64,000 nucleotides of DNA from Promethearchaeia archaeon (GCA_046483985.1 JAWOCD010000040.1:32001-96000); one strand, 5' to 3'. Shown: positions 25,552 to 40,306, counted from the stretch's first letter. The notes: generated from the sequence alone by a model not told the origin. Numbers and translations: made by a program.

Positions 25552-26484
25552 TTATTCGCCTTTGATAATTTTCTCTAGATAAGGGAAAAATCTGGTGTAA
25601 TGGACTGCCATGCAATGGATACCGTCAATTAAATCCTTGCTTTTGAGCTCTGTAATAAATGGTTTAAAGTGCTTATAGTTCAGTTCGTCGTACATCTCCC
25701 TCTTCTTCTCTTTATTGGGGGCATTTTTCTTTACGTCTTTCCAACTCGCAAGGACCTCTTTTGGAACATCTACTCCAGGCACAAACATATCAAAACCTTT
25801 TGCAATACCATAAGATTTCATCGGAAAAATTCCAAGCATTATCGGCACATCATATTTTTTAATTTCTTTTAAAAATTCGATGGTTTTGTCGATATCATAG
25901 ACAACTTGTGTTTGAAAGAATTCTGCTCCTGCTTTTGCCTTTCTCTTGATTTTAAGCACTTCAGACATCATCGGATCTGCATTTGGATTCGCAGCCGCAC
26001 CAACATGAAGAGTGGGTGGATGTTCGATTTCTTCTCCATTTATCTTCCCAGTATCAACCATTTCTCTTACCATCTGAACAAGAGTAGCGGAATCTAAATC
26101 AAATACGGGTTTACATTCCGGCATATCTCCCATTGCAGGATGATCTCCGGTAAGTGACAGTACATTCCGAATTCCTAATGCATGTGCTCCCATAATCATT
26201 CCAGCAATGCCTAATCTATTACAATCTCGTACAGTTAATTGCCATACACATTCCAAACCCGTCTCATCTTGGATAATTTTTGTAGCTGCCATCGAATTAA
26301 TGGTGACAATGCCCAGCGGACTGTCGGTGACGTTCGCGGCAGTCACATATGGAGCCATTTCCTTTGCCTCTTCTACTGTATGGGAAAGATCGCATGTTTT
26401 CTCAGGTTCAAGTTCTCCAGTTAACACAAAATCTCCACTAGCTAATTTTTCTCCTAATTTTGAATATATTTTCTTATCTGACAT
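25552..26484 (-). CDS. metF: Methylenetetrahydrofolate reductase, copy 1
   Basis: GELEP, NVTDSP, QLTVRDCN, LTGDHP, FFQTQVVYD. Confidence 0.9.
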   Translation of the reverse strand: MSDKKIYSKLGEKLASGDFVLTGELEPEKTCDLSHTVEEAKEMAPYVTAANVTDSPLGIVTINSMAATKIIQDETGLECVWQLTVRDCNRLGIAGMIMGAHALGIRNVLSLTGDHPAMGDMPECKPVFDLDSATLVQMVREMVDTGKINGEEIEHPPTLHVGAAANPNADPMMSEVLKIKRKAKAGAEFFQTQVVYDIDKTIEFLKEIKKYDVPIMLGIFPMKSYGIAKGFDMFVPGVDVPKEVLASWKDVKKNAPNKEKKREMYDELNYKHFKPFITELKSKDLIDGIHCMAVHYTRFFPYLEKIIKGE

Positions 26485-26499
26485 TTGTCTAATTCACCT

Positions 26500-27180
26500 C
26501 TATCTAAATACAACCTCTTGCTGGTGCCCAGTATCTGACCAGTCTCGAGGTTCTCGTAGTTTTTCGAATAAATCTAACCTTCCTAAGGCTTTTAACCGCT
26601 CGAAAATTAGGACCCAGCCGCAATCTCGTTCGTAATCGTCCACTTCACACTTTCCTTCCACCATACCGCCGCATGGACCATTCATAAGTCCTTTTGCGCA
26701 CGTAGTAATAGGGCAGATGCCTCCCGTATAATTTAACAAACAGTCTCCGCAAGCTCCACACCGTTTATAAAAACGTCCGATTCGCTTAGTTTCCCCAATA
26801 AATTCTGTGTTATTGGTAATCAATACGGGAACATCAGCATAATCGGAATGTCTCTTCTGAAGCACATGGGTAATACTGGCAACCCCCAATCCGCAACTTA
26901 ACGTAAGAACCGCATCCATCTCAGGTAATATATCTCTGACCTTTCGAAGGTCTTTCATCATCACCCGATTGTCACAAACATCTTCGGCAACGATGGTGGT
27001 TAATACTTCATAGCCTTTTTCAGTGAGTTTTTCCTCCCACTCTTCAGCACCTTCGGTACCGCCAGTCTGGCAGAGTGCGGCACAAGTCCCGCAACTGACC
27101 AACAAAATCTTTTCTACGCCAAAATCTTCTAGCGCTTCAAAAACCTCTTCTTTAGGTTTTTTCGTGGTAATAACTACCAT
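26500..27180 (-). CDS. metV: MTHFR Fe-S/Zn subunit MetV, copy 1
   Basis: CGTCAALCQTGG, SCGLG, CGACGDC..GGICPITTCAKGLMNGPCGG..CEV..CGW. Confidence 0.9.
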   Translation of the reverse strand: MVVITTKKPKEEVFEALEDFGVEKILLVSCGTCAALCQTGGTEGAEEWEEKLTEKGYEVLTTIVAEDVCDNRVMMKDLRKVRDILPEMDAVLTLSCGLGVASITHVLQKRHSDYADVPVLITNNTEFIGETKRIGRFYKRCGACGDCLLNYTGGICPITTCAKGLMNGPCGGMVEGKCEVDDYERDCGWVLIFERLKALGRLDLFEKLREPRDWSDTGHQQEVVFR

Positions 27181-27671
27181 TTTTATTATACCTCTTTAAG
27201 TTATTTAATTATTTATGATAACATTTATTTTGTAGTTAGGAAAATTAATGAGAGAAATTAAGGTTAATCCTTACATATCATAAGTGAAATTATAGTAGAG
27301 CGATCTTGTCATCGTGAACATTTTCGCTTTTCAGATATACTTTCTCTTGATTATTGACGAAAATGATAGTTTGAGAGGCTTTTTTATGTCATTTTCAACA
27401 AAAGCATAAATCGAATATGAAAAGTTATAATATTTTTTGAATTGAAGAAAAATTTGGGTATTGTTCAATCAGATCAAAATAAAGACGAATAGGAATTAAT
27501 GATTGATGAATAATTAATAAAAAATTCAATACTCCTAAAAAGCTAGATTGAGATTTATAGATTCAAATCGATAATTTTAAATCCTAATGTCTATTATTTC
27601 TATGTGAGTCTTAATAATAAAACGATAAAGGAATACACAAAGAATTGGTGATTTAAATAGCTGTAACTTAC

Positions 27672-29354
27672 ATGAAGAAGCTGGAAGAAGAACCAAGATC
27701 ATATAAATCCCAGTTTACGCAATTAACAAAAGGTATAAACTTAAAAGCTCAAGAATGGATTTTATCGAAGGTCGATACCAACCAATCGATTCTGGAAGCG
27801 GGTTGTGGAACGGGTTTATTAGCACATAAACTAGCCCTTAAAGGAAATACGGTGAGGGCAATAGACAAGAACCCCAAAATGATAGAATTTGCTTCGGACA
27901 AATATCAGCAAGATAAGGAGAACAATCTTACATATCAAGTTGCTTCTATTGAAGATTTACCAGTTGATCAAAGATCACAAGATATCATCATCAGTACCTT
28001 TATGCTTTCGGAATTAAGGCCATTTGAACAGCAAACTTTTCTTCGGAACGCTTGGAAGGCTCTAAAAGAGGGGGGGAAACTAATCCTTGCTTCAGAATTT
28101 ATAGCCTCAGGTATATGGAAATTGGGCTTCAAGTTAAAAAGATGGAGATATAAAAAAAAATTAGAACGCCTTAAACTCCCCGCCACTCATCCCTTGGAAA
28201 ATTTTTACCAGTATTTAGAACCAATAGGGTTTAAAATTCTTAACGAAACCAAATGGAATCACGGCACTATCCATGTACTTGAATTACAGAAGACAATTAG
28301 AGGAGATCTGGATCAGAACGATGAGGAAGGATTATCTAAAAATAAACCAGGGTACTATCGTCCAGAATCCCTTAAATTTAAGGGATTAAGTTCACAGTTA
28401 AAAATCTACCGGTGTCTTTTTACGGGACAAATAGATAATGTGCCGATAGAACCTGGAATTTATCAATCTGGCAATCCTGATAAGGAATCACCAATCATAG
28501 TTACGGCAAACTATTACTACACCTATGCAAAGGTTATGCGCAACTTAGAAGGGATTGATGCTTGGGTTTTATGTGTTGATACAAATGGAATTAATGTGTG
28601 GTGTGCCGCTCGAGGGGGAGACTTCGGTAATCAGCAATTATTAGAAGCGATAAACGCCACCAATATTCAAGACCTAACAGACTCTCGTACCCTGATACTC
28701 CCTCAATTAGCCGCGGGAGGGGTTGCGTTACCCAAACTTCCTGAAGATCCAAAAGATTTTCCATTTTCCGTAGAATATGGTCCGATATGGTCCAAATATC
28801 TAAAAGAGTATCTCAAACAAGAAGGGGGGCAGAGAAAGACTCCCGAAATGAAACGAGCAAAATTTACGCTTTCCCATAGAATCAGGGCGGGAGTGACCCA
28901 TACCACCTTTCTATTCCGAAAAATCTTTGCAAAACCTCTGATAGTGATTTTTTTGGCTCTTTTCCTCCTTAACTACTTTAATTTTATAAATAGATTATGG
29001 TGGATGGGGGACCTCATTTTATGGCTTTTAATCCCCAATTTACTCATTCCAATCATATATCCCCTTTCCCAATTTACAAGAAAATTTATCTTTAAGGGAA
29101 CCTTATTTGGTACTATAAATATCTTCCTCTCGGGTTTTATCTCATGGGTAATGTATGGATCCTTACTGTATTCTGCACTTAATTCCATACTTTTTTTCTG
29201 GATAACTTTCTTCAGTACAATGTCCTTTAGCGGTTATACGATGTCAACAAACCCCCGAAAAATTCAAGAGGAATACTCAACATTCCGTAAAATCAACGTT
29301 ATTTTACTGTTATCAGCGATAATATTAACATTTTTAAGTTTAGTATTTATTTAA
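27672..29354 (+). CDS. Class I SAM methyltransferase fused to HgcA-like corrinoid domain and membrane anchor
   Basis: ILEAGCGTG motif I; PGIY..GNPDKESPIIVTANY; VDTNGINVWCAARGG cap helix (28593-28619); LILPQLAAGGV; several C-terminal TM helices. Possible ATA start at 27657. Confidence 0.85.
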   Translation: MKKLEEEPRSYKSQFTQLTKGINLKAQEWILSKVDTNQSILEAGCGTGLLAHKLALKGNTVRAIDKNPKMIEFASDKYQQDKENNLTYQVASIEDLPVDQRSQDIIISTFMLSELRPFEQQTFLRNAWKALKEGGKLILASEFIASGIWKLGFKLKRWRYKKKLERLKLPATHPLENFYQYLEPIGFKILNETKWNHGTIHVLELQKTIRGDLDQNDEEGLSKNKPGYYRPESLKFKGLSSQLKIYRCLFTGQIDNVPIEPGIYQSGNPDKESPIIVTANYYYTYAKVMRNLEGIDAWVLCVDTNGINVWCAARGGDFGNQQLLEAINATNIQDLTDSRTLILPQLAAGGVALPKLPEDPKDFPFSVEYGPIWSKYLKEYLKQEGGQRKTPEMKRAKFTLSHRIRAGVTHTTFLFRKIFAKPLIVIFLALFLLNYFNFINRLWWMGDLILWLLIPNLLIPIIYPLSQFTRKFIFKGTLFGTINIFLSGFISWVMYGSLLYSALNSILFFWITFFSTMSFSGYTMSTNPRKIQEEYSTFRKINVILLLSAIILTFLSLVFI

Positions 29355-29414: not shown

Positions 29415-29762
29415 TTGAATGATATGATTCGAAATACAATAAATGACAAAGAGAATTCTAGTTGTTGTTCGTCTCCTAATATGGGAAATATTATGGGGGC
29501 ACTTGATATTCCGGTTTTTATTGATCCGTCAAAATGTGTAGGATGCGGTTTTTGTGAAGAATTATGCCCCTTTGGGCTTCCCAAAAATGACGGAAAGGGA
29601 AAATATTATGTGGAGGCCCCCGAAGAATGTGTTGAGTGCAGTGCATGTCAGCGAAACTGTCCTGCAGATGCAATCATCTTGGAGGAACAAAAAGGATGTG
29701 GGTGTTTATGGGATGCAAAAAACCGAATAAAGGAAAAGAATAATACATCTAAATGCTGTTAA
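29415..29762 (+). CDS. HgcB-like 2[4Fe-4S] ferredoxin
   Basis: CVGCGFCEELCP, CVECSACQRNCP, GCGC and terminal KCC, directly after the HgcA-like gene. Confidence 0.8.
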   Translation: MNDMIRNTINDKENSSCCSSPNMGNIMGALDIPVFIDPSKCVGCGFCEELCPFGLPKNDGKGKYYVEAPEECVECSACQRNCPADAIILEEQKGCGCLWDAKNRIKEKNNTSKCC

Positions 29763-29975: not shown

Positions 29976-30707
29976 TTACTCACCATATGATGATTCTGCC
30001 ATTCGCTCTGCCAATTCTTCTTTCAATTCTCGAATAAATCGGTTTAGTTCTTCACTTTGAGAAAGAAATTCTTCATTATGCAGCCCATTTATTAAAGAGA
30101 GAATATGAATTATGCCAGAAACCTCCTTATCACATGTGTGCCCGAACCGAGGTGCTCTGCATTCATGGCAGACACGGAGAGCAAAATCTTGGAGAGTTTC
30201 AACATCCAACTTCTTATTTTGTATAAACTTAGCACCTGCCTCTGAAGAGCCACAAGGAGAAACTCGTCTAATTTTTATAAACTTTACATCTCCATTATTA
30301 TCTACTTTAAGATCAAAATTAGGTTTTCCGAATTTCTCAGCAAAAGCGTCAATCTCTTGAATCCGCATATTGGGTTCTAATGAACACATTGTGCGCGGAC
30401 CGATTGATTTTGAATTTATATCTTTTACTTGCCTTAATAGACCTCTCCCAGGAGTTATCCCTAATATTAATGGTTTTTGAAGTTCTGCGATTTCTAATAT
30501 GATATCTGGGTGCCTAACATACACAACATATAAGTCACATTCTGGGATTTTTAAATCTAATCCATCATCAAGCATAATATTCGGTGAAATATCGGGAACT
30601 TCAATCCAGTTAGTGGAAAAAAATCTCTTAAAGTTTTCATAAGCTCTTTCCCCATATTTTCCATCTGTAATTAACCCAATAGTTATGACTCTATCTTCTT
30701 CATTCAT
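29976..30707 (-). CDS. DUF166-like conserved archaeal protein
   Basis: DGKYGERA, HPDI, MCSL, SPCGSS, CRAP..TC pattern recalled for this family. Confidence 0.6.
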   Translation of the reverse strand: MNEEDRVITIGLITDGKYGERAYENFKRFFSTNWIEVPDISPNIMLDDGLDLKIPECDLYVVYVRHPDIILEIAELQKPLILGITPGRGLLRQVKDINSKSIGPRTMCSLEPNMRIQEIDAFAEKFGKPNFDLKVDNNGDVKFIKIRRVSPCGSSEAGAKFIQNKKLDVETLQDFALRVCHECRAPRFGHTCDKEVSGIIHILSLINGLHNEEFLSQSEELNRFIRELKEELAERMAESSYGE

Positions 30708-30750
30708 TGTTTAAGCTCTGAGAAAAGGATTTAGATCAAAAATAAATTAG

Positions 30751-31170
30751 TTATTTTGTCCCATAGAGCTCGTCAACTTTTTGAGAGATCTCTTCCGCTA
30801 TAATTTTTGCTAATTTCAAACCTTTATCTCCTAAGCGTCTTGAACTATCTGGAATTAATTCTGGGTGGGCATCCATAAATTCTTTAACATTAACCATCGC
30901 CGCGGGTTTTCCACTATATTTATCTACGGCAACCCTTGCACATTCCTCTTCACAGCCTTCTACAGTAATGGTTGGATGATTCTTAGCAAAATCTCTCTCT
31001 TCTTGGCCTCCATGTCTTTCCAAACCCCCAGCCATAAAGAGTGGTTGGCATAAAATGATTGTTCGATTGGGACGTAATTCTTCAACGACCATTCTTGCAG
31101 CCGCTCTTGTTAAGGTACCCCCAACTAAATCTTCTCCACTACAAGCGATAATCCCTACTTTTTTTTTCAA
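30751..31170 (-). CDS. DGC-type putative zinc/metal-binding protein
   Basis: IIACSG...LC...VEGCEEEC; TTG start at 31170 behind GAGGAGG is preferred over 31209. Confidence 0.75.
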   Translation of the reverse strand: MKKKVGIIACSGEDLVGGTLTRAAARMVVEELRPNRTIILCQPLFMAGGLERHGGQEERDFAKNHPTITVEGCEEECARVAVDKYSGKPAAMVNVKEFMDAHPELIPDSSRRLGDKGLKLAKIIAEEISQKVDELYGTK

Positions 31171-31171
31171 C

Positions 31172-31594
31172 TTAATCCTCCTCCTTCTCATTATTATGAA
31201 GTAATTCATCTACTTTAGTAGCTATTTTTTCGGCAAGTTTTTTTGATAATTTTTTTGTATTTTCGCCAATGGGTATAATTTTTTGTTCTGGTTTAAGATC
31301 TCGATTCTCTTTTACCACATCTGTGGTCATAAATTGAGCGTCCACCTTACCAGTAGCTTTTTTGAGGTCGTTAAATGAGCATTTTAGAGGGCATCCATCA
31401 ACCGAAATTACATAATTTTCTTTCATTTTTTTGATTGTTTCGTCTTTCCCCTTAACAATCAATGGTAAACATTCGATTTCTGCTTTTTTTTTAGCCAATT
31501 CATCCACAACAATATAAGCCGCTTCTCTGCCAATGCTACCAAAAACTTTCCCTATTCCACTACAAGGTATAATATATACTTTTTTCTTATTCAT
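31172..31594 (-). CDS. DGC-type putative zinc/metal-binding protein
   Basis: IIPCSG...ECL...VDGCPLKC. Confidence 0.8.
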   Translation of the reverse strand: MNKKKVYIIPCSGIGKVFGSIGREAAYIVVDELAKKKAEIECLPLIVKGKDETIKKMKENYVISVDGCPLKCSFNDLKKATGKVDAQFMTTDVVKENRDLKPEQKIIPIGENTKKLSKKLAEKIATKVDELLHNNEKEED

Positions 31595-31605
31595 TTCACA
31601 TACAT

Positions 31606-32481
31606 CTATTCTTTTTTATGATGATTTTTTTCCTTTTCCGCTTTATCTTTCATATATTTAAAATAATCTGGACCATCCATCAAAAATTCCTTATCTTCTT
31701 CAAAATTTTCTAATTTTATTTCGGCAAACCACCCTTTTTGATAAGCATCTTTATTCAATAATTCGGGTTGGTCATTTAAGTTGTGATTAATATTTATAAT
31801 CTCTCCAGAGGCAGGAGAAATAAGCTGCAGAACCGTTTTTGTAGATTCAAAATTCCCTACGTCATCAAATTGTTCAATCTTTTTACCTTTTTCTGGAAGA
31901 TCAACAAATAAGATATCACCAGCACTATTTTGTAAATAGTCCGAAATTCCAAGAAGTGCAGTATCTCCTACTGGTTTTACCCAACAATCGTTCTCATTAA
32001 AATAGTATCCCGATTTTGGGACTCGAAATCTGTATTTATCGATAACCGTTTCAAAATAGTTAATTTCATCAAATTCTCTTTCTTTGCCTTCAATTTTCTC
32101 CTTAGGCTCTGTTAATTCGTCCATGATATATTTAGAAATTTTTTCTACTAATTTTTCTCCTTCTTCAGTTAAAGTTAAATCCTTACCAGGTTTCATCTTA
32201 AATTTTTTCAACATCTCCGGTATTGAAACTCTTAAAACAATATTGGATTGAATATTCTTAACTAATTTGGTTGCACAACGTGTCATACATCCATCGATAA
32301 TTATGACTTTATAGTTAGTTACCATTTCTTCATATTTTTCGTTTCCCGAATTCAATGATACCGGACAAATAATTTTGATATTATCTTCCATTTCATTGAG
32401 TTTTAAGGCGACTTCTCTTGCGACTACGCCAAGAATCTTATCTAATCCATTACACGGCAAAACACATAGTTTTTCTTTCAT
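31606..32481 (-). CDS. DGC domain fused to glycine-cleavage H-like lipoyl domain
   Basis: N-term LPCNG..ICP..IDGCMTRC; C-term GISDYLQNSAGDILFVDLP..FESTKTV..SPASGEI..PELLNKDAYQKGW with the lipoyl Lys position retained. Confidence 0.85.
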   Translation of the reverse strand: MKEKLCVLPCNGLDKILGVVAREVALKLNEMEDNIKIICPVSLNSGNEKYEEMVTNYKVIIIDGCMTRCATKLVKNIQSNIVLRVSIPEMLKKFKMKPGKDLTLTEEGEKLVEKISKYIMDELTEPKEKIEGKEREFDEINYFETVIDKYRFRVPKSGYYFNENDCWVKPVGDTALLGISDYLQNSAGDILFVDLPEKGKKIEQFDDVGNFESTKTVLQLISPASGEIININHNLNDQPELLNKDAYQKGWFAEIKLENFEEDKEFLMDGPDYFKYMKDKAEKEKNHHKKE

Positions 32482-32500
32482 AAAGACACCCTAAAATTTT

Positions 32501-32797
32501 TTATTTCCCTCTAATCTTTTTAATCTGAGCCTTAACGTCTTTTTTATCTGGAAAAGAAAGTGCGTCCAAAGGACATGCTTTTGAACACGCTCGACAAAAC
32601 ACAACACAATTATGGGGATGTTTAACAATTAATTTTTTTTCCTCGCTTTCTATTTTTTCAAAGACATCATGCGGACAAAATTCAGTACAATCCATACAAA
32701 AATCGCACTTATCATAGTCTATTGTTGGATGCCATTCAATTTTATTTCGTGGGACTCCCATAAATGTTTCTTTATTTGAATCATATCCCTTACTCAT
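32501..32797 (-). CDS. Ferredoxin (4Fe-4S dicluster)
   Basis: CDFCMDCTEFCP and CVVFCRACSKACP; second ATG (32797) fits the SD spacing. Confidence 0.85.
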   Translation of the reverse strand: MSKGYDSNKETFMGVPRNKIEWHPTIDYDKCDFCMDCTEFCPHDVFEKIESEEKKLIVKHPHNCVVFCRACSKACPLDALSFPDKKDVKAQIKKIRGK

Positions 32798-33185
32798 TAT
32801 TCTCATCCTCCTTGATTTCTTTTAATGTTTTTTCTACTAAATCCACGGCTTCTTGAGTTGTCATTTCTCTTATATCTAGAGGGACTAGATCTTCTTTAAC
32901 ATCTAATCCCGCCTTTTTAAATGCGTCCTTGAATAGTTTATATTGCATGGTTGCAGCACATCCAGCAACCATATATTTTTTTCCAGCTTTTAGAAAATCA
33001 TCCCAAAACCTATCGCCATCTTCCTCACATAATTGTGGGTGGATAAATCCGTATTCCACGGGTAATTCAATTCGAACTTGGTTAATGAAATCCCAAATAT
33101 CCATCTTGGCAAAACCAGGACATTTTCCCGTGCAGACACACATTATAAATCCAATCTTTTTTTCTTCTTGTGCTTCTGAACTCAT
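32790..33185 (-). CDS. Stand-alone HdrA N-terminal-like Cys/Fe-S module
   Basis: IGFIMCVC..C, HPQLC, VAGC, LDIRE pattern parallels RIGVFVCEC..YSC..VAAC..SIRE in the HdrA at 46702..50238. Confidence 0.7.
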   Translation of the reverse strand: MSSEAQEEKKIGFIMCVCTGKCPGFAKMDIWDFINQVRIELPVEYGFIHPQLCEEDGDRFWDDFLKAGKKYMVAGCAATMQYKLFKDAFKKAGLDVKEDLVPLDIREMTTQEAVDLVEKTLKEIKEDENNE

Positions 33186-33250
33186 TCAAATCATTCTTAA
33201 GTTTAATTTAGTTTTATTTAATTAAGTTAACTTTTTTATATTTATAAATG

Positions 33251-33268
33251 TATGCATTAATACGCATA
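33251..33268. promoter_or_regulatory. Putative ArsR operator 1 (TATG-N10-CATA)
   Basis: TATGCATTAATACGCATA inverted repeat in the divergent intergenic region. Confidence 0.6.
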
Positions 33269-33343
33269 GATGCATAAAGTTTCTCTCTTATATTTTAAAT
33301 TCCTTAAACTTATATTAGAATAAGAATATTTTTAATTTGAATA

Positions 33344-33361
33344 TATGTAAAATAATACATA
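33344..33361. promoter_or_regulatory. Putative ArsR operator 2 (TATG-N10-CATA)
   Basis: TATGTAAAATAATACATA, same spacing as operator 1, 11 nt before the arsR ATG. Confidence 0.6.
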
Positions 33362-33372
33362 CATAAATCAAA

Positions 33373-33696
33373 ATGGATCTAAAACCACTAAAAATAAAAA
33401 CATTAAAAGCATTATCGGATGAAACAAGATTAGAGATAATAAGTCTTCTACGTCATGGTGAGGAGCTTTGTGGATGTGAGCTCGAAAAGGTAATTGATAA
33501 ATCCCAATCGACAATCTCCAGACATTTAAAGAAACTTGAAGAGGCAGATTTGGTCGAAAGGCGAAGAGAAGGAGTTAAAGTACTTTATAGAATTAAAGAT
33601 CCTAAGATATACAAATTACTAGCTGTTCTTAATAATTTAATAAAAAGGAACAATAAATTTAAAAAAATCGTAGAACTTCAAAAAGAAATAAAATAA
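33373..33696 (+). CDS. arsR: ArsR/SmtB metalloregulator with alpha3 Cys site
   Basis: KALSDETRLEII, ELCGCEL, SQSTISRHLKKL, RREG. Confidence 0.88.
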   Translation: MDLKPLKIKTLKALSDETRLEIISLLRHGEELCGCELEKVIDKSQSTISRHLKKLEEADLVERRREGVKVLYRIKDPKIYKLLAVLNNLIKRNNKFKKIVELQKEIK

Positions 33697-33708
33697 ACAA
33701 AAGGTGGA

Positions 33709-33990
33709 ATGATTAAATTGAAAGAAAATGAGAAATTAAAGATCGATATTTATGTGCCATTAAATGTTTGCTCGTGCCAATGGGAGGGTTTTATGAACTC
33801 TATATTTGCAGAGCTTAAAAAATACAAGGAGCATATTGATTTCCAAACAAAAAATCTTAAATCTGAAGAAGCAAGGAAATTAAATTTGCATGGAAATAGT
33901 GTAGTTATTAATGATGAGGAAGTCGTTAAATCTTCGTTTAATCTCAAGAGAAAATTACCGAAAATCTTAGAAGAAAAGGGCTTGATTTAA
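33709..33990 (+). CDS. Small CxC protein, possible thioredoxin-like fold
   Basis: KIDIYVPLNVCSCQW...SVVINDE; co-oriented with arsR. Confidence 0.55.
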   Translation: MIKLKENEKLKIDIYVPLNVCSCQWEGFMNSIFAELKKYKEHIDFQTKNLKSEEARKLNLHGNSVVINDEEVVKSSFNLKRKLPKILEEKGLI

Positions 33991-33992
33991 AG

Positions 33993-34454
33993 TTGAATGA
34001 ACACAAAAAAAGTCTTGATAATATAGTTTTAATTCCTTGTTCTGGGTCTGAATATAATGGGGAATTAGCCCGCCAAGTAGCTATTAGATTAAATGACGAG
34101 GGAGTTATTTCCAAAAATAGTTCTATGTTATGTTCGACTACATTTTTAAAAAACATCTTGCTCGAAAAACAATCCTTGGTGGATATCACAAAAAATAATC
34201 TTAAATCAAGTTTTCTTATTGTAATAGAGGGATGTAAAAGTTCGTGTAAAAGTCTTATCCTTAAACAATTAGGGATAAACCCCGATATGATTTTTCACGT
34301 AGATCAAATTGTACCCAAAGAAAGATTAAATCTGAGTGATCTTGAGGTCTTTAAAAACCGTCCTCGACTCAGTAATATTAAAAAAGACGATATCTCAAAA
34401 ATGGTTGATTATATTATAAAGAGTCTAAAAGAAAAGGGATATAATCTTAATTAA
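33993..34454 (+). CDS. DGC-type putative zinc/metal-binding protein
   Basis: LIPCSG...LCS...IEGCKSSC. Confidence 0.75.
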   Translation: MNEHKKSLDNIVLIPCSGSEYNGELARQVAIRLNDEGVISKNSSMLCSTTFLKNILLEKQSLVDITKNNLKSSFLIVIEGCKSSCKSLILKQLGINPDMIFHVDQIVPKERLNLSDLEVFKNRPRLSNIKKDDISKMVDYIIKSLKEKGYNLN

Positions 34455-34472
34455 ACGATTCGGAGTTTACCA

Positions 34473-34507
34473 CTAGAGTGCGAGAAAGCACCGTCCTTTG
34501 TTGTTCA
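34473..34507 (+). mobile_element. IS200/IS605 left-end remnant
   Basis: TAGAGTGCGAGAAAGCACCGT is near-identical to 38877-38897; ends GTTCA like the right end at 39091. Confidence 0.65.
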
Positions 34508-34542
34508 ATTAATATAAATGGATACATTATAGGTCGAAAAAG

Positions 34543-35193
34543 TTGGAAGTCAATTTTTTAGTAGCTTTTTTAGCAGGATTAGTAATCGGAGCAACACCTT
34601 GTATTTTGTTAATGCTTAGTGCTTTTGGATCCTCTTTAATATTAAGGGGAGAACGAAAAAATTTCATTAATATTTCCCTCGGTTTATTGTCAGGTTTTGT
34701 ACTTGGATATATATTTATTTCCATTATCTTTTTATTTTTTGTGCCAATGTTTGAGATGCTCTATTATTTCAAATATATATTTGCGGGAATCTTGATTTTT
34801 ATAGGAATTTGGCAAATTCTTGATTATAAAAATGAGGACAGCAGAGTTTTTAGTACACCCCAAAAGGTAAAATCAGTATTGAAAAATTTTATTAAAAAAA
34901 GAACAGGGACTTATGCGCTTTTAGTTGGAATCATATTTGTCTTTATTAAAATGCCTTGTTTTGGCGGTGTATATTTGTCCCTTCTTTATAATCTGCATAA
35001 AAACCCTCTTCTTTATGTATTTATAATGTGGTATATAATAGGTATGTTAATGCCTATCACTCTGATCTTGATTTTACTCCGATTAGGTTTAAAATATAAA
35101 AAAATTAATAATTTCAGATTAAAATATCGGCCATATTTGAGGTTATTAAGTGGAGGAGTTTTAGTATTTCTTGCAATCTATTTACTGATATAG
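34543..35193 (+). CDS. CcdA/DsbD-like transmembrane thiol-redox protein
   Basis: About six TM helices with paired TPCIL and MPCFG motifs. Confidence 0.75.
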   Translation: MEVNFLVAFLAGLVIGATPCILLMLSAFGSSLILRGERKNFINISLGLLSGFVLGYIFISIIFLFFVPMFEMLYYFKYIFAGILIFIGIWQILDYKNEDSRVFSTPQKVKSVLKNFIKKRTGTYALLVGIIFVFIKMPCFGGVYLSLLYNLHKNPLLYVFIMWYIIGMLMPITLILILLRLGLKYKKINNFRLKYRPYLRLLSGGVLVFLAIYLLI

Positions 35194-35369: not shown

Positions 35370-38300
35370 ATGCTTTCCGAAGACACAATAATATTGTTCG
35401 GAATTACCCCTGGGGTTACCGAATTCCGAAAAGTTTATAATATGCTCAAGTATTTTATGAAGGAAAAGAAGGAAATCGACTATAATGACAGATTTAACAT
35501 CATCTTTTTTACTGGTGAGGGGCCCAAGTATTTTGAGGATTTTACTTTAAATCCCGCTCATCTATTAGAGACCCTTAGTGACTCGAAGTCCGAGATAATA
35601 GAGGCGGATATTGCGGGGGGTATCTTTATCTCTGCTATGTACGTTGTTGAAGTATTTCAGAAGATCTCGGGGAAGTGCTTTCGAATGATTATTCTTTCCG
35701 ATTCGGGATCAAAAAAAATTCCTGAAAAACAAATGTCCTTTCTCTCCGATTTGTTAGAAAAAATTACGGATATACCATTCATTATGGACGCCGTTCGAAT
35801 AGATGGGGATGACCCCCGAGATGATTTACGATTGATGAAATTAGCGCGACGGACTGGAGGAGATCTTTATGAGATTGACGAAATAGATCAAGAAGCTGCA
35901 GAAGCGGAAACCTCTGCTAAGGAAAAGGAGAAAACGGTAATCGAAATGCTTGGAAAGTTATCCCGAACTCCACTCAATCTTGCCAAGAAACTGAAAAAAG
36001 AAGTACAAGAAGAGGAAATGCAGGAAAAAGAACAATTCAGCGACCTCCAAGATGTCTTAAATCATCTAAAGGGCAAAAAGAAGGTGGAAGCCGAATTATT
36101 TGAGGTAAATAATATGGAAGATATTCCTCCAAAAAAAAGGGTATTTTATGAGGGATTAGGCGAGCCCCTTCAGCCAGTAGGCGGGGAAGGAAATAAACGG
36201 TGCATGATCTGCTTCACGTCTTTAAAAAATCAAGAGTTACTAAAGTGCCCCAATTGTAAGAATATTGCACATAAAATCTGCTTTGCCATCTGGGCAAAGA
36301 AATCAAACATAGGCATTCCCCACATATTTCGATGTCCTAATTGCTATAGTTTAATTAAAATGGACAGCGATTTAATTAAAAAGGTAAATAGAGTGAAAAC
36401 GCCCACCATTGAGGTGTGTAAGGATCTTGAAAACGTTTGCTTGGAAGAATACTTGGAATCCTTGGAATCTCCCGAAGGACCTAAAGTGATTACCTCAGAG
36501 GAAGGGAGTTTTAGTGAAGTGGAAGAAGAGACGGAAGAAGAATCCAAACAGAAAGTGGAAACGGAAGGAGTATCTAAAAGGGCAGAAACAGATGATAAAG
36601 AATTGAAAATGATATGGTGTCCCAAGTGTGGAAAGATGATTACCAATGAATATAATCGCTGTCCACAGTGTGGATATAAATTAAGAAAAGTAAAACCGAG
36701 CGAAGGGAGGGAAGCAGCATCACAACGGCAAGAAGAAGCAGAGATTTTATCACAAATTAGTGAACTAAAGGTCAAGGAAAAAAGCGATCTAAAGGCCAAA
36801 AATCACAGGCAAGCAATTCAAAAAGCCCAGAAGATTAGAAAGTTGGCCAAACAGTTGGGAAAAGAAGAAATGGTACAAGAACAAGAAAACTTTATAGAGA
36901 AAGTAGAGGAAGAACGGAACCTTGGAGAGATGAGGAAAGATTACAATAGGAAATTCAGTTATTTAAAGAATAAAGTCAGCAATTTACTTAAACACAATGC
37001 CATTTCCAAAGCCTATCAAGCTGTAGAGGATTTCTCTGTACAAAATGAGGATTTAATTTCATCTCTTGCAACCCCCGAATATGAAAAATTTAAAACAAAG
37101 ATTACAGATCTGTATCAAGGAAAAGGTAAACAAGAGAAGAAAAAGACCAAAACAGGAGGGATAAAACAAGTAAGTAGTCAAGCAACTGAAGAAGATATTT
37201 GGGAAAAATTGGATGAAAAGGAAGGCGAGATTAAATCAAAGATAGGGGAAATAACAAAATTAAACGAAGCTCGGAAACAAATCTCTCAAAAAGTTGAAAA
37301 TCACGAATATGATGGAGCCATCAAAATTTTAAACTCCGCGATTGATGACATAAGCAGTCAAGAACTTGCAGAATATAAGAGGAGTTTGCAAGAAAAAAAA
37401 GCAAAAATTCGGAGAAAAAAGAAAAAGCATAACAACTTGTCCAAAAAAATAACAAAGGAACAAAAGAAATATGAGAAGAATCATAAGAAAGATAATCTTT
37501 ACGCTGCATTAAATTACGCCACGAATGTGAAATTGTTGGCAGGACAATTACAAAACGCTGAACTTAAAGAAAAGTATTCCGAAATTGAGAAAGATCTCGT
37601 AGAGGAAATAGAGGATCAAAAGGAAAAAGATGTCGTTGAAGGAGACGAATTGGAGGAGGACCTGAAATCCTTGGAAGATACCATTAAGATCGAGTATTTT
37701 GACGATGACCTTATCCCAATTATAAAAAAATACCATTTAGACGAATTAGAACAGAAACACGCGAACTCGGAAAAGATTATTAAGGTTGCTTCCAAACGTT
37801 TAAAAGAAAATCGTAATAAGATGAAAGAAAAAATAACGCAAGAGCTTATAGTATACTCTTCGAATGGTGAAGTTTTCCAAAAGCAAGCCCAACTCGGAAT
37901 TGAGAGAATAGAAAAGAGCAAAAAAGTCAAAAAGGACGTATTCAAAAAGATCGTAGAGTATAAAATAGAGTATAAGCCCAATTTCTCTGCGAAAAGAATT
38001 GAAGATCTAACAATTCAATTGAAGGTACCCTATCACTTCAAATTAACATCGCTTTTTATTCACGAGCAAGAATTTATCAATTTAGCGATAAAACAACCAA
38101 CTAAAGGTGGATTAAAATATTCTTTTATATTGGAGGATTTATCCCTTTCACGGGGATTCTCCATTCATTACCAGTTGGAGAGACATATTTCAAGGATTTT
38201 GCTCTTTACAAAAAAGAACTATCTGTACATGATCAAGTGCTTTTATAACGTTTCAGTCCCTTCAAGTGAAGCAAGCTCGAAGATTTTATTGCCCTTCGAT

Positions 38301-38636
38301 ATTAATGATGCACAGGATTTTAATTGGTTAATCATCGAAGATATATTTCCAATAAATTACAGCCCAGTTATTCTTGAACCAGAAAACTTGGAATGCGCAG
38401 AATCCTCTCTGGACGAAAAGGGAAAATTAGTCGGTTGGATTTTGGAAAATTTATCCGCGGGCACTCACTTATTTCAATATTTATTAGTTTCACCAGAGAA
38501 ACTCGCATTACTAACCAATTATCTTCAGAAAAAGCTTCAAAATGCAGATGCATTTTTACAACACGGGAATCTCATAGGTTTCAAAAAAAATGTGGAGGAG
38601 CTCAGTTCGATCATCCGTAAAGAGCTAAAATCATAA
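35370..38636 (+). CDS. vWA-like + C4HC3 zinc finger + zinc ribbon + coiled coil + beta-rich C-terminal protein
   Basis: DRFNIIF..MIILSDSG; CMIC..CPNC..AHKIC..W..CPNC; WCPKC..CPQC; paralog of 39140..40306. Confidence 0.75.
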   Translation: MLSEDTIILFGITPGVTEFRKVYNMLKYFMKEKKEIDYNDRFNIIFFTGEGPKYFEDFTLNPAHLLETLSDSKSEIIEADIAGGIFISAMYVVEVFQKISGKCFRMIILSDSGSKKIPEKQMSFLSDLLEKITDIPFIMDAVRIDGDDPRDDLRLMKLARRTGGDLYEIDEIDQEAAEAETSAKEKEKTVIEMLGKLSRTPLNLAKKLKKEVQEEEMQEKEQFSDLQDVLNHLKGKKKVEAELFEVNNMEDIPPKKRVFYEGLGEPLQPVGGEGNKRCMICFTSLKNQELLKCPNCKNIAHKICFAIWAKKSNIGIPHIFRCPNCYSLIKMDSDLIKKVNRVKTPTIEVCKDLENVCLEEYLESLESPEGPKVITSEEGSFSEVEEETEEESKQKVETEGVSKRAETDDKELKMIWCPKCGKMITNEYNRCPQCGYKLRKVKPSEGREAASQRQEEAEILSQISELKVKEKSDLKAKNHRQAIQKAQKIRKLAKQLGKEEMVQEQENFIEKVEEERNLGEMRKDYNRKFSYLKNKVSNLLKHNAISKAYQAVEDFSVQNEDLISSLATPEYEKFKTKITDLYQGKGKQEKKKTKTGGIKQVSSQATEEDIWEKLDEKEGEIKSKIGEITKLNEARKQISQKVENHEYDGAIKILNSAIDDISSQELAEYKRSLQEKKAKIRRKKKKHNNLSKKITKEQKKYEKNHKKDNLYAALNYATNVKLLAGQLQNAELKEKYSEIEKDLVEEIEDQKEKDVVEGDELEEDLKSLEDTIKIEYFDDDLIPIIKKYHLDELEQKHANSEKIIKVASKRLKENRNKMKEKITQELIVYSSNGEVFQKQAQLGIERIEKSKKVKKDVFKKIVEYKIEYKPNFSAKRIEDLTIQLKVPYHFKLTSLFIHEQEFINLAIKQPTKGGLKYSFILEDLSLSRGFSIHYQLERHISRILLFTKKNYLYMIKCFYNVSVPSSEASSKILLPFDINDAQDFNWLIIEDIFPINYSPVILEPENLECAESSLDEKGKLVGWILENLSAGTHLFQYLLVSPEKLALLTNYLQKKLQNADAFLQHGNLIGFKKNVEELSSIIRKELKS

Positions 38637-39139: not shown

Positions 39140-40306
39140 ATGATGGAAAATACCCGCAGTGAAGATACCCTTATATTCAGTGGTTTAACCCCTGGGATTA
39201 CAAAGATGAATGAGATTTATGAGTCCCTAGAGCATTTTTGTAAAATTAAAAAGCAAAATGACCCAAGTGAGCGATTTAATCTCATTATCTTTCAAAAAGA
39301 TGGACCCAATTATTTAGAGAAATTCACTCTTAAACCAGAGAATATAGTAGTCGCTCTAAAATCCCTAGAGCCGATGATTGTTCGGGCAAACATCGCAGGC
39401 GGAATTATGGTGGCAATTACCTTTATTATTGATGTATTTAAACGAATCCCAGAAAAAACTTTCCGGCTTATTATCCTCACGGATAAAGGTTCACTTAAAA
39501 TTCCGGAGAATTATATCCCTGTTTTAAATAATCTAATTGATAAGGTAAAGGATATGCCTTTTTTTATCGATATTGTGCGGCTCGATATCGATGACCCTCG
39601 AGAGGATCTCAAGTTAATGAAACTTGCACGTAGAGCAAATGGAGATATTCATGAAATCAATGATCCAGAATCCTTATCAGCAATTTTGGAAGTGCTTGCT
39701 CTGAAGCGGGAATTAACCTACGAAATCGGAGCAAGAGATCAAGACCTTGAAATCCCAAAGGAAAATCGACCCTTTTATGAAAATCTTGCCGATGAGCCGG
39801 TGCCTGTTTCTAAGGAAGATAATCTCACTTGTTCAATTTGCTTTCAGCAAGAAAAAGCGGAACTGGTCAAATGTCCGAGTTGTAATACCGTTGCCCATAA
39901 AAGTTGCTGGGCAAAATGGGCAAAAAACTCACAAATAGGAATATTTAACGTGTTTCGTTGTCATAATTGCTTTAATCTATTAAAGTTCGATGAAGAATAT
40001 GTTTTTGCGATTCAATCGGGAAAGGAGCCAGCTTTAGAAGAGGAAAAAGTGAAGGTCATTGAGGTGCAAAAATACTTAGAAGATTTAGAAACTGATGAGG
40101 GGCCAGAGATAGTGCAAGTAGAGGATCCAATACCGGTTCCCGGGGAAGATACTGGTTTCCAATTTGAAGAGGAAGAAGAGGACGATTATATTCCTTTGAA
40201 TGATGAGGAGGTTAGAATAATCTGGTGTCCTCACTGTAATACCATAACTTCGAACGAATATCGGAAGTGTCCTAACTGCGGATGGTCTTTAAAAGATGTA
40301 GATTAA
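39140..40306 (+). CDS. vWA-like + C4HC3 zinc finger + zinc ribbon protein
   Basis: ERFNLIIF..LIILTDKG; CSIC..CPSC..AHKSC..W..CHNC; WCPHC..CPNC. Confidence 0.8.
   Translation: MMENTRSEDTLIFSGLTPGITKMNEIYESLEHFCKIKKQNDPSERFNLIIFQKDGPNYLEKFTLKPENIVVALKSLEPMIVRANIAGGIMVAITFIIDVFKRIPEKTFRLIILTDKGSLKIPENYIPVLNNLIDKVKDMPFFIDIVRLDIDDPREDLKLMKLARRANGDIHEINDPESLSAILEVLALKRELTYEIGARDQDLEIPKENRPFYENLADEPVPVSKEDNLTCSICFQQEKAELVKCPSCNTVAHKSCWAKWAKNSQIGIFNVFRCHNCFNLLKFDEEYVFAIQSGKEPALEEEKVKVIEVQKYLEDLETDEGPEIVQVEDPIPVPGEDTGFQFEEEEEDDYIPLNDEEVRIIWCPHCNTITSNEYRKCPNCGWSLKDVD

Follow-up and report, generated by a model that had tools for sequence, protein, structure and literature searches.

Positions 29976–35193 of a 64,000-nucleotide stretch of a Promethearchaeia archaeon genome (GCA_046483985.1, JAWOCD010000040.1:32001–96000; hereafter the window) hold a divergon in which the gene of an ArsR/SmtB repressor separates a leftward operon, built around a fused DGC~GcvH gene, from a rightward arm encoding further cysteine-containing proteins. 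Five genes of the left arm (HdrA-N-like, ferredoxin, DGC~GcvH fusion, DGC, and DGC) form a core that very likely belongs to an arsenic or antimony regulon, and we lean, with less assurance, toward the view that this core would act as an arsenite-induced, ferredoxin-fed lipoyl/DGC thiol relay carrying As(III) or reducing arsenic species. Judged from its sequence, the divergon is best read as the sensor and accessory portion of an arsenic regulon whose pump lies elsewhere. The evidence comprises gene content, conservation, linkage to ars genes, the CxC motif of the sensor, and operator motifs. Arsenic resistance is among the best-studied detoxification systems, yet in the papers searched we found no description of this five-gene set, which lies in ars islands of many anaerobes, nor of CpaM, a family related to a neighboring gene discussed below; the closest accounts were of a DGC-containing arsR5 operon in P. 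mercurii ND132 and of hgcAB colocalized with ars genes, both taken up below.

Gene content of the divergon

The source is a low-GC (about 35%) Asgard genome bin of the Loki/Promethearchaeia type, 97% complete and 4.06 Mb in size, with the window on contig C74. Genes of the window were called by listing open reading frames (ORFs) and scanning them against Pfam and NCBIfam; a sigma-70 promoter scan was set aside because the organism is an archaeon. The genes that an initial annotation of this DNA had named in the divergon were each recovered where it had placed them:

29976–30707, minus strand: DUF166 protein of an arsenic-context subfamily, last gene of the left arm (PF02593, 102.7 bits; cut-off 24.4)
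30751–31170, minus strand: DGC protein 3 (DGC3; PF08859, 42.2 bits; the longest ORF reaches 31209)
31172–31594, minus strand: DGC protein 2 (DGC2; PF08859, 59 bits)
31606–32481, minus strand: DGC~GcvH fusion, a four-Cys DGC domain with a lipoyl-carrier H-protein domain (PF08859 and PF01597)
32501–32806, minus strand: 2×[4Fe-4S] ferredoxin (Fer4 families), overlapping the upstream HdrA-N-like gene by 17 nucleotides (nt)
32790–33185, minus strand: HdrA-N-like protein, a free-standing domain resembling the HdrA N terminus, 131 residues (five invariant Cys; no Pfam match)
33240–33249 and 33251–33268, unstranded: TATA-like box and candidate operator palindrome 1a, 1 nt apart, facing the left arm
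33344–33361, unstranded: candidate operator palindrome 1b, with the arsR start codon 12 nt away
33373–33696, plus strand: ArsR/SmtB repressor with the CxC site ELCGC (PF01022, 60.2 bits; NF033788, 93.6 bits, cut-off 55)
33709–33990, plus strand: CxC protein, 93 residues, VPLxxCxCxW (no Pfam match; both Cys invariant in the family alignment)
33993–34454, plus strand: DGC protein 4 (DGC4; PF08859, 50.2 bits)
34543–35193, plus strand: CcdA/DsbD-like membrane protein, two of whose membrane helices carry Pro-Cys (no Pfam match itself)

The left arm is a tight six-gene operon on the minus strand, running from HdrA-N-like through ferredoxin, DGC~GcvH, DGC2, and DGC3 to DUF166; DGC3 likely starts at a TTG at 31170, behind a GGAGG and 1 nt past the DGC2 stop codon. 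Rightward, arsR is followed after a 12-nt gap by the CxC protein, after a further 2 nt by DGC4, and then by the CcdA-like membrane protein. The absence of arsB, acr3, arsC, and arsM from the window, asserted in the initial annotation, was borne out, as the ORF listing and family scans revealed no canonical ars pump (ArsB or ACR3), reductase, or methylase there. The only ACR3 match in the whole genome lies on another contig (C101:104945–105922); a pump at the ArsR locus, as in a canonical ars operon, is thus found in relatives and not in the window.

A core shared by Archaea and Bacteria and often near ars genes

To identify relatives of this locus, we searched species-representative genomes with a profile of the DGC~GcvH fusion and examined the best 80 loci of the 158 obtained. 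The fusion is present in all 80, and the order HdrA-N-like, ferredoxin, DGC~GcvH, DGC, DGC is kept wherever the contig permits. Archaeal carriers include Loki-, Thor-, Heimdall-, Jord-, and Freyarchaeota bins; bacterial carriers include Acetobacterium species, Clostridium ljungdahlii, Moorella/Neomoorella, and Eubacterium callanderi/limosum, with others among the Actinomycetota, Acidobacteriota, Dehalococcoidales, and further groups. Recurrence of the core in every locus, across two domains of life, argues that the gene arrangement is not due to chance.

All ORFs within 7.5 kb of the core were clustered, and recurrent clusters were then annotated, so that not every neighbor family bears an annotation. 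Many of the 80 loci are short contigs, and 44 have at least 5 kb on both flanks. Of the 80 loci, 38 have at least one structural ars gene (ACR3, ArsA, ArsD, ArsC-type, or ArsP) no farther than 7.5 kb from the core; among the 44 long-flanked loci, the figure is 26. An ArsR-family gene is present in 52 of the 80. The annotated neighbors with a bearing on metals or thiols are as follows:

ACR3: 21 loci, 10 archaeal and 11 bacterial (TIGR00832, 290 bits, above cut-off)
ArsA: 12 loci (TIGR04291, 810 bits)
ArsD: 6 loci (PF06953)
ArsC-type LMWP: 13 loci (PF01451)
ArsP_1 permease: 9 loci (PF03773)
Thioredoxin_3: 7 loci (PF13192)
Thioredoxin and DsbD_TM: 10 and 8 loci, respectively (Pfam)
CDF transporter: 9 loci (TIGR01297)

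The locus resembles ars operons with thiol accessories, such as those with ArsC-thioredoxin, ArsD-ArsA, or arsP-arsE, in that a CxC-type ArsR heads it, in its small Cys-rich proteins, DGC protein, and putative CcdA/DsbD-type membrane protein, and in that the core stands elsewhere beside ACR3, ArsA, ArsD, and ArsC. For part of the right arm there is a published parallel in the arsR5-arsP-arsE(PF13192)-DGC(PF08859) operon of P. mercurii ND132, the arsR5 of which is arsenic-induced (10.1101/2022.10.17.512643). Unlike these operons, the window locus contains neither pump nor reductase, and its core relies on three components (lipoyl carrier, HdrA-N-like Fe-S domain, and ferredoxin) that none of the ars systems in the papers searched possesses.

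A CxC-type repressor and its candidate operators

The window ArsR has the winged-helix HTH_5 domain of its family. In 30 loci an ArsR gene diverges from the core, and all 30 of these ArsRs keep the CxC motif (C[VGA]C), at what we take to be the position of the ELCVC arsenite site in R773 ArsR. This invariance and the ars neighborhood of the core together support the proposal, made in the initial annotation, of a metal(loid)-linked system.

The 187-nt spacer between arsR and the HdrA-N-like gene contains two copies of an 18-bp palindrome, TATGYR-N6-YRCATA. All 17 strict matches to this pattern in the scanned neighborhoods of 33 Asgard loci fall within the arsR/core spacer, in 15 of the loci. 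Genome-wide, it matches seven sites, compared with three for a control in which the pattern was reversed. The 187-nt spacer accounts for two of the seven; of the remaining five, three are intragenic, one lies between convergent genes, and one lies upstream of a DUF1848 gene. The palindrome is absent upstream of ACR3 and of the neighboring MT~HgcA gene (see below), both in this genome and in 12 relative loci. Palindromes 1a and 1b are candidate operators of the cassette; ArsR would bind both, and arsenite or antimonite would release it.

Cysteine-rich proteins of the two arms

The HdrA-N-like protein aligned to residues 5–94 of the HdrA chain 7bkb_A with its Cys residues in register, at a weak E value of 0.17. 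Its Asgard and bacterial copies are 60–83% identical, with C16, C18, C22, C53, and C76 invariant; because the HdrA N-terminal domain matches four of these five, C22 is the extra one. The match is confined to this domain, and the protein has no FAD domain. The adjacent ferredoxin keeps its position in the core in 61 loci by ORF clustering and in more by tblastn.

The four DGC-domain proteins of the window match PF08859 at 42–59 bits, above the cut-off of 27. In an alignment of 31 DGC paralog sequences, C11, C42, C68, and C72 are invariant, in the pattern CSG...C...GC-x3-C. An AlphaFold model of DGC2 (predicted local distance difference test score, 93.9) adopts a flavodoxin-like α/β fold. A Foldseek comparison of this fold with the PDB gave no match at E ≤ 0.001, with MvhD (5odc_D) at E 0.05, and the best hit of a wide VIA comparison was 3pu6_A (Z 8.6; root mean square deviation [rmsd] 2.9 Å over 113 aligned residues), the rest being generic flavodoxin-like folds at Z of about 7. 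A profile search of PDB sequences and the ESM Atlas yielded nothing further on the DGC domain. The genome also encodes a second pair of DGC genes (G000:C11:6028–6820; L089), 66–71% identical to a pair that directly precedes the core in L028, a resemblance suggesting that an accessory pair has relocated in this genome.

In the right arm, the order ArsR, CxC protein, and DGC4 is syntenic in 15 Asgard loci. The CcdA-like protein has 95 homologs, nearly all from Asgard archaea, many of which are named CcdA by NCBI or JGI and a few of which match PF02683; its alignment with a DsbD_TM protein that neighbors a bacterial core covers the first membrane-helix motif only.

A probable lipoyl carrier with a cysteine in place of the HEW glutamate

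The GcvH domain of the fusion (PF01597, 120.6 bits) has the fold and the lipoyl-lysine motif of an H-protein. It can be superposed on H-proteins of solved structure, among them complexes with LplA and LIAS, with an rmsd of about 1.2 Å and Foldseek TM scores of 0.91–0.94, and E212, S213, and K215 are conserved, with the lipoyl Lys215 kept in 75 of 77 fusions. The domain departs from GcvH in being fused to a DGC domain, in scoring 115.2 against the TIGR00527 H-protein equivalog, just under the cut-off of 115.85, in coexisting with a standalone GcvH in the same genome, and in carrying Cys166 at the position of the HEW-motif Glu (aligned to the THEW of 1onl_A). This residue is Cys in 66 of 77 fusions, and the standalone GcvH has Gln there. 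In true H-proteins, the HEW Glu helps keep the loaded lipoyl arm within its cavity. The dihydrolipoyl group together with Cys166 could form a three-sulfur site of the kind that As(III) prefers.

A dihydrolipoyl dehydrogenase gene (Lpd; TIGR01350, 532 bits) adjoins the core in 20 bacterial loci, and a lipoate-protein ligase catalytic domain is encoded beside it in 18 loci, five of them archaeal. Given these neighbors, the GcvH domain is very probably lipoylated and redox-cycled. This genome also has lipoate users of the glycine-cleavage type, with another GcvH, a single clear Lpd, and a single match to LplA.

An Lpd, a lipoyl carrier, and Cys proteins are also the makings of a general defense against thiol or oxidative stress, of the Lpd-DlaT-AhpD-AhpC type of Mycobacterium tuberculosis, and the presence of a second GcvH with its Lpd and LplA would suit a spare H-protein that shields glycine cleavage; proximity to ars genes would then be hitchhiking. 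Thioredoxin and DsbD_TM genes are indeed common neighbors of the core. We consider this explanation very unlikely, since hitchhiking hardly accounts for a position behind CxC-type ArsRs that recurs in both Archaea and Bacteria, and a spare carrier would need neither two Fe-S proteins nor three DGC domains. In addition, neither a peroxiredoxin nor AhpD occurs among the recurrent neighbor families that were annotated, a set short of every family.

The main rival to an arsenic function is sulfur or persulfide trafficking, in which a system like sHdr-LbpA would move or oxidize sulfane sulfur on its lipoate-binding protein, possibly forming or cleaving thioarsenic species, with the ArsR-type regulator as a thiol or persulfide sensor. 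A GcvH-like lipoyl carrier that works outside glycine cleavage, combined with Hdr-derived Fe-S modules, recalls sHdr-LbpA, as does the dedicated lipoate ligase found in many core loci. In four to five Asgard loci (L014:12485–14552, L023, L026, and L059), a block of DsrE, DsrE, DsrH, YeeE (Sulf_transp), and TusA genes adjoins the cassette on the opposite strand downstream of the core; the window has no such block. A cysteine desulfurase family gene (TIGR01977) stands beside the cassette in 11 bacterial loci. We nevertheless judge this explanation unlikely on several grounds. The HdrA-like protein lacks the FAD domain, and HdrB and HdrC (CCG) are missing from the annotated recurrent neighbor families, which do not comprise all families. 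The carrier is fused to a DGC domain and is accompanied by an arsenic-type regulator and arsenic-type neighbors, and the hosts of the cassette are strict anaerobes rather than sulfur oxidizers. Persulfide sensors of the ArsR family carry two distant Cys residues, whereas the CxC of the cassette-linked ArsRs sits at what we take to be the ELCVC position. Finally, the commonest transport neighbors are the arsenic-specific ACR3, ArsA, and ArsD.

A proposed arsenite-induced thiol relay

Returning to the arsenic relay, the scheme we infer, which covers electron flow, lipoylation, the binding of arsenic, and the direction in which the chemistry runs, would begin with the release of ArsR described above. 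Low-potential electrons would pass from the 2×[4Fe-4S] ferredoxin to the [4Fe-4S] domain of the HdrA-N-like protein and on to the four-Cys DGC domains and the lipoyl arm; in bacteria, the NADH-linked dihydrolipoyl dehydrogenase would plug into the same core. The reduced dihydrolipoyl dithiol and Cys166 would then make up the three-sulfur As(III) site, and the module would either carry and buffer As(III) on its way to efflux or lend the reducing power of the dithiol to pentavalent arsenic species. The right arm (CxC protein, DGC4, and CcdA-like protein) may extend the thiol relay to or across the membrane.

Several observations weigh against this scheme. Structural ars genes are missing within 7.5 kb of the core in 42 of the 80 loci, although many of these contigs are short. 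The window itself has no pump or reductase, and the ACR3 gene, on its other contig, is preceded by a different operator motif. The DsrE, DsrH, TusA, and YeeE genes near some Asgard copies and the cysteine desulfurase genes near Acetobacterium copies fit sulfur chemistry equally well. Fold searches with the DGC domain returned only generic flavodoxin-like structures, and the candidate ligands of its four Cys residues are Zn, an Fe-S cluster, As, and a redox disulfide. The CxC protein showed no tie to the ArsD or Thioredoxin_3 profiles (hhalign probabilities of 0.9% and 2.9%, respectively).

If the relay operates as proposed, lipoic acid, a classic cellular target of arsenite, would serve as a defense against it, and a lipoyl arm that is the working part could account for the ability of strict anaerobes to buffer arsenic species or reduce them. 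Carriers of the cassette include the genetically tractable acetogens C. ljungdahlii, A. woodii, and E. limosum.

The neighboring HgcA-like pair as a second, predicted arsenic module

Beyond the left arm, outside the core cassette, lies a second unit:

25552–27180, minus strand: MetF and MetV, divergent from MT~HgcA
27562–27574, plus strand: operator-like motif 2, TTCAAATCGATAA, about 100 nt upstream of MT~HgcA
27672–29354, plus strand: MT~HgcA, a CpaM-like S-adenosylmethionine (SAM) methyltransferase fused to an HgcA-like corrinoid membrane protein (PF03599, CdhD)
29415–29762, plus strand: HgcB-like 2×[4Fe-4S] ferredoxin ending in KCC (Fer4 families; NF040864, 52.3 bits, cut-off 99)

As the initial annotation had noted, the left arm converges on the HgcB-like gene, with a spacer of 213 nt between it and DUF166. 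The pair resembles HgcA/HgcB and the CpaM/HgcAB-like pairing of NCBIfam in its CdhD-type corrinoid domain with a cap-helix Cys, followed by a membrane domain, and in a 2×[4Fe-4S] partner ending in vicinal Cys residues; its linkage to ArsR and ars genes is likewise shared with some reported hgcAB loci. It is unlike these families in scoring under all three cut-offs (MT~HgcA, 127.6 bits against 180 for CpaM, NF043040, and 182.9 against 275 for HgcA, NF040863), in the N-terminal fusion to a SAM methyltransferase, and in its cap helix, which reads NVWCAARG instead of the N(V/I)WCA(A/G)GK of HgcA. The Cys of this helix is kept in 21 of 21 sequences and the GK is changed, so that the HgcA signature is incomplete.

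MT~HgcA was matched in 33 of 40 genomes of the same family, and the HgcB-like gene comes after it in relatives too. Half of the larger same-family contexts (8 of 16) show the order divergent arsR, sometimes DUF166, ACR3, MT~HgcA, HgcB, a paralog of the CxC protein, a small protein that we call c13, and sometimes ArsC; an ArsR gene lies beside the MT~HgcA operon in 10 of the 16. The MT~HgcA/HgcB pair is thus a predicted member of the arsenic regulon in its own right. MetF and MetV lie within 1.5 kb of MT~HgcA in none of 29 loci from relatives, the adjacency being seen in this genome only.

Where 0.56 occurrences are expected in 4.06 Mb, the genome has three copies of the 13-mer TTCAAATCGATAA. 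One precedes MT~HgcA by about 100 nt, one precedes ACR3 (C101) by 67 nt, and one precedes a c13 gene (C18) by about 90 nt. Its 11-mer core is also found between a second ArsR paralog (C101:86178–86573) and another c13 gene, and the TTCAAATCGA motif is a candidate operator for this C101 paralog. Related tandem motifs lie past the TATA box in the ArsR-ACR3/DUF166 spacers of relatives. What was ancestrally one pump operon appears to have been broken up into three loci, with the operator retained at each. A tRNA-Val(CAC) gene (C101:104427–104506; L088 7428–7507) lies about 330 nt upstream of ACR3, and there is no arsR beside ACR3, an arrangement that fits relocation of the pump gene.

The cassette and MT~HgcA have different operator motifs, so that the window appears to join two arsenic modules with separate repressors, presumably different ArsR paralogs. 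The neighbors are, by prediction, two arsenic modules that share DUF166 and CxC-protein paralogs, the latter coming after HgcB in the arsenic operons of relatives. Particular to this window are the side-by-side position of the modules, their distinct operators, and a cassette operator that is not shared with the pump.

These findings bear on a further idea from the initial annotation, that the relay would bind a metal(loid), reduce it, and pass it on, within one pathway, to the HgcA-like corrinoid methylase next door. Adjacency in the window, the place of the HgcA-like pair in arsenic operons of relatives, the DUF166 and CxC-protein paralogs common to both units, the lack of an ArsM match above the family cut-off in this genome, and the published colocalization of hgcAB with ars genes in bacteria (PMC7438021; 10.1101/2022.10.17.512643) would all suit such a pathway. 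However, the 80 loci, those of acetogens and other bacteria included, are all free of HgcA-like, MetF, and MetV genes within 10 kb of the core; three relatives (G121, G109, and G071) keep the HgcA-like operon without the DGC~GcvH cassette, two others (G129 and G171) having both; and the operators differ. We therefore regard a hand-off as quite unlikely, and as a conserved coupling it did not hold up. Of the co-occurrences anticipated for the core, that with ars genes stands and that with HgcA-like genes does not, the HgcA-like pair being linked to arsenic operons in relatives rather than to the core.

The operator motif common to the HgcA-like pair and the arsenite pump gives a way to test the native role of HgcA-type enzymes, which is disputed, with arsenic as a candidate substrate. 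At its most far-reaching, and in our estimate doubtful, the locus would represent new arsenic enzymology: a complex driven by ferredoxin or NADH would trap As(III) at a three-sulfur site of dihydrolipoyl and Cys166 or reduce pentavalent or methylated arsenic, and, in the same stress response, an Asgard corrinoid HgcA-like methylase, loaded from SAM, would methylate arsenic without ArsM.

DUF166 and minor neighbors

The DUF166 protein is no equivalog of DfsP (47 bits against a cut-off of 200). Its gene comes after the core in 13 Asgard loci, and paralogs precede ACR3-MT~HgcA in relatives. In a DUF166 tree, the arsenic-context members form one group, far from the other DUF166 of this genome, and the window copy pairs with that of the cassette-linked locus L009 (99/98). 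A DUF166 gene of M. maripaludis, MMP_RS05055, is needed for autotrophic growth and is cofit with carbon monoxide dehydrogenase/acetyl-CoA synthase (CODH/ACS; bioRxiv 10.1101/2024.03.05.583561). CODH/ACS has a CdhD-type corrinoid protein, and DUF166 adjoins a CdhD-type HgcA-like protein here and in relatives, which hints that DUF166 serves corrinoid Fe-S proteins. In three Asgard loci (L022:6876–7472, L009, and L028), a gene of the uncharacterized archaeal-cluster family DUF169 (COG2043) accompanies DUF166 after the cassette; a fourth family member lies in the bacterial locus L055.

Just past the right arm, two paralogous proteins are encoded on the plus strand (35370–38636 and 39140–40306). 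The first of them, which the Pfam scan covered, gave zinc-ribbon and weak RING/PHD-type finger matches, all below Pfam cut-offs.

In Asgard arsenic operons, the small protein c13, which belongs to no Pfam family, is encoded after ACR3 or the CxC protein. Its genes lie at G000:C18:75372–75710 (minus strand) and G000:C101:86767–87138 (plus strand) in this genome and at L008:6596–6961, L009:15838–16203, L010:4158–4520, L021:5956–6375, and other positions in relatives. The c13 ORF ends at two adjacent in-frame TGA codons, beyond which conserved coding sequence (...C-U-U-EKVRNRLDxGEFK...) continues in nine of nine homologs when read through, making c13 a probable selenoprotein with two consecutive selenocysteines.

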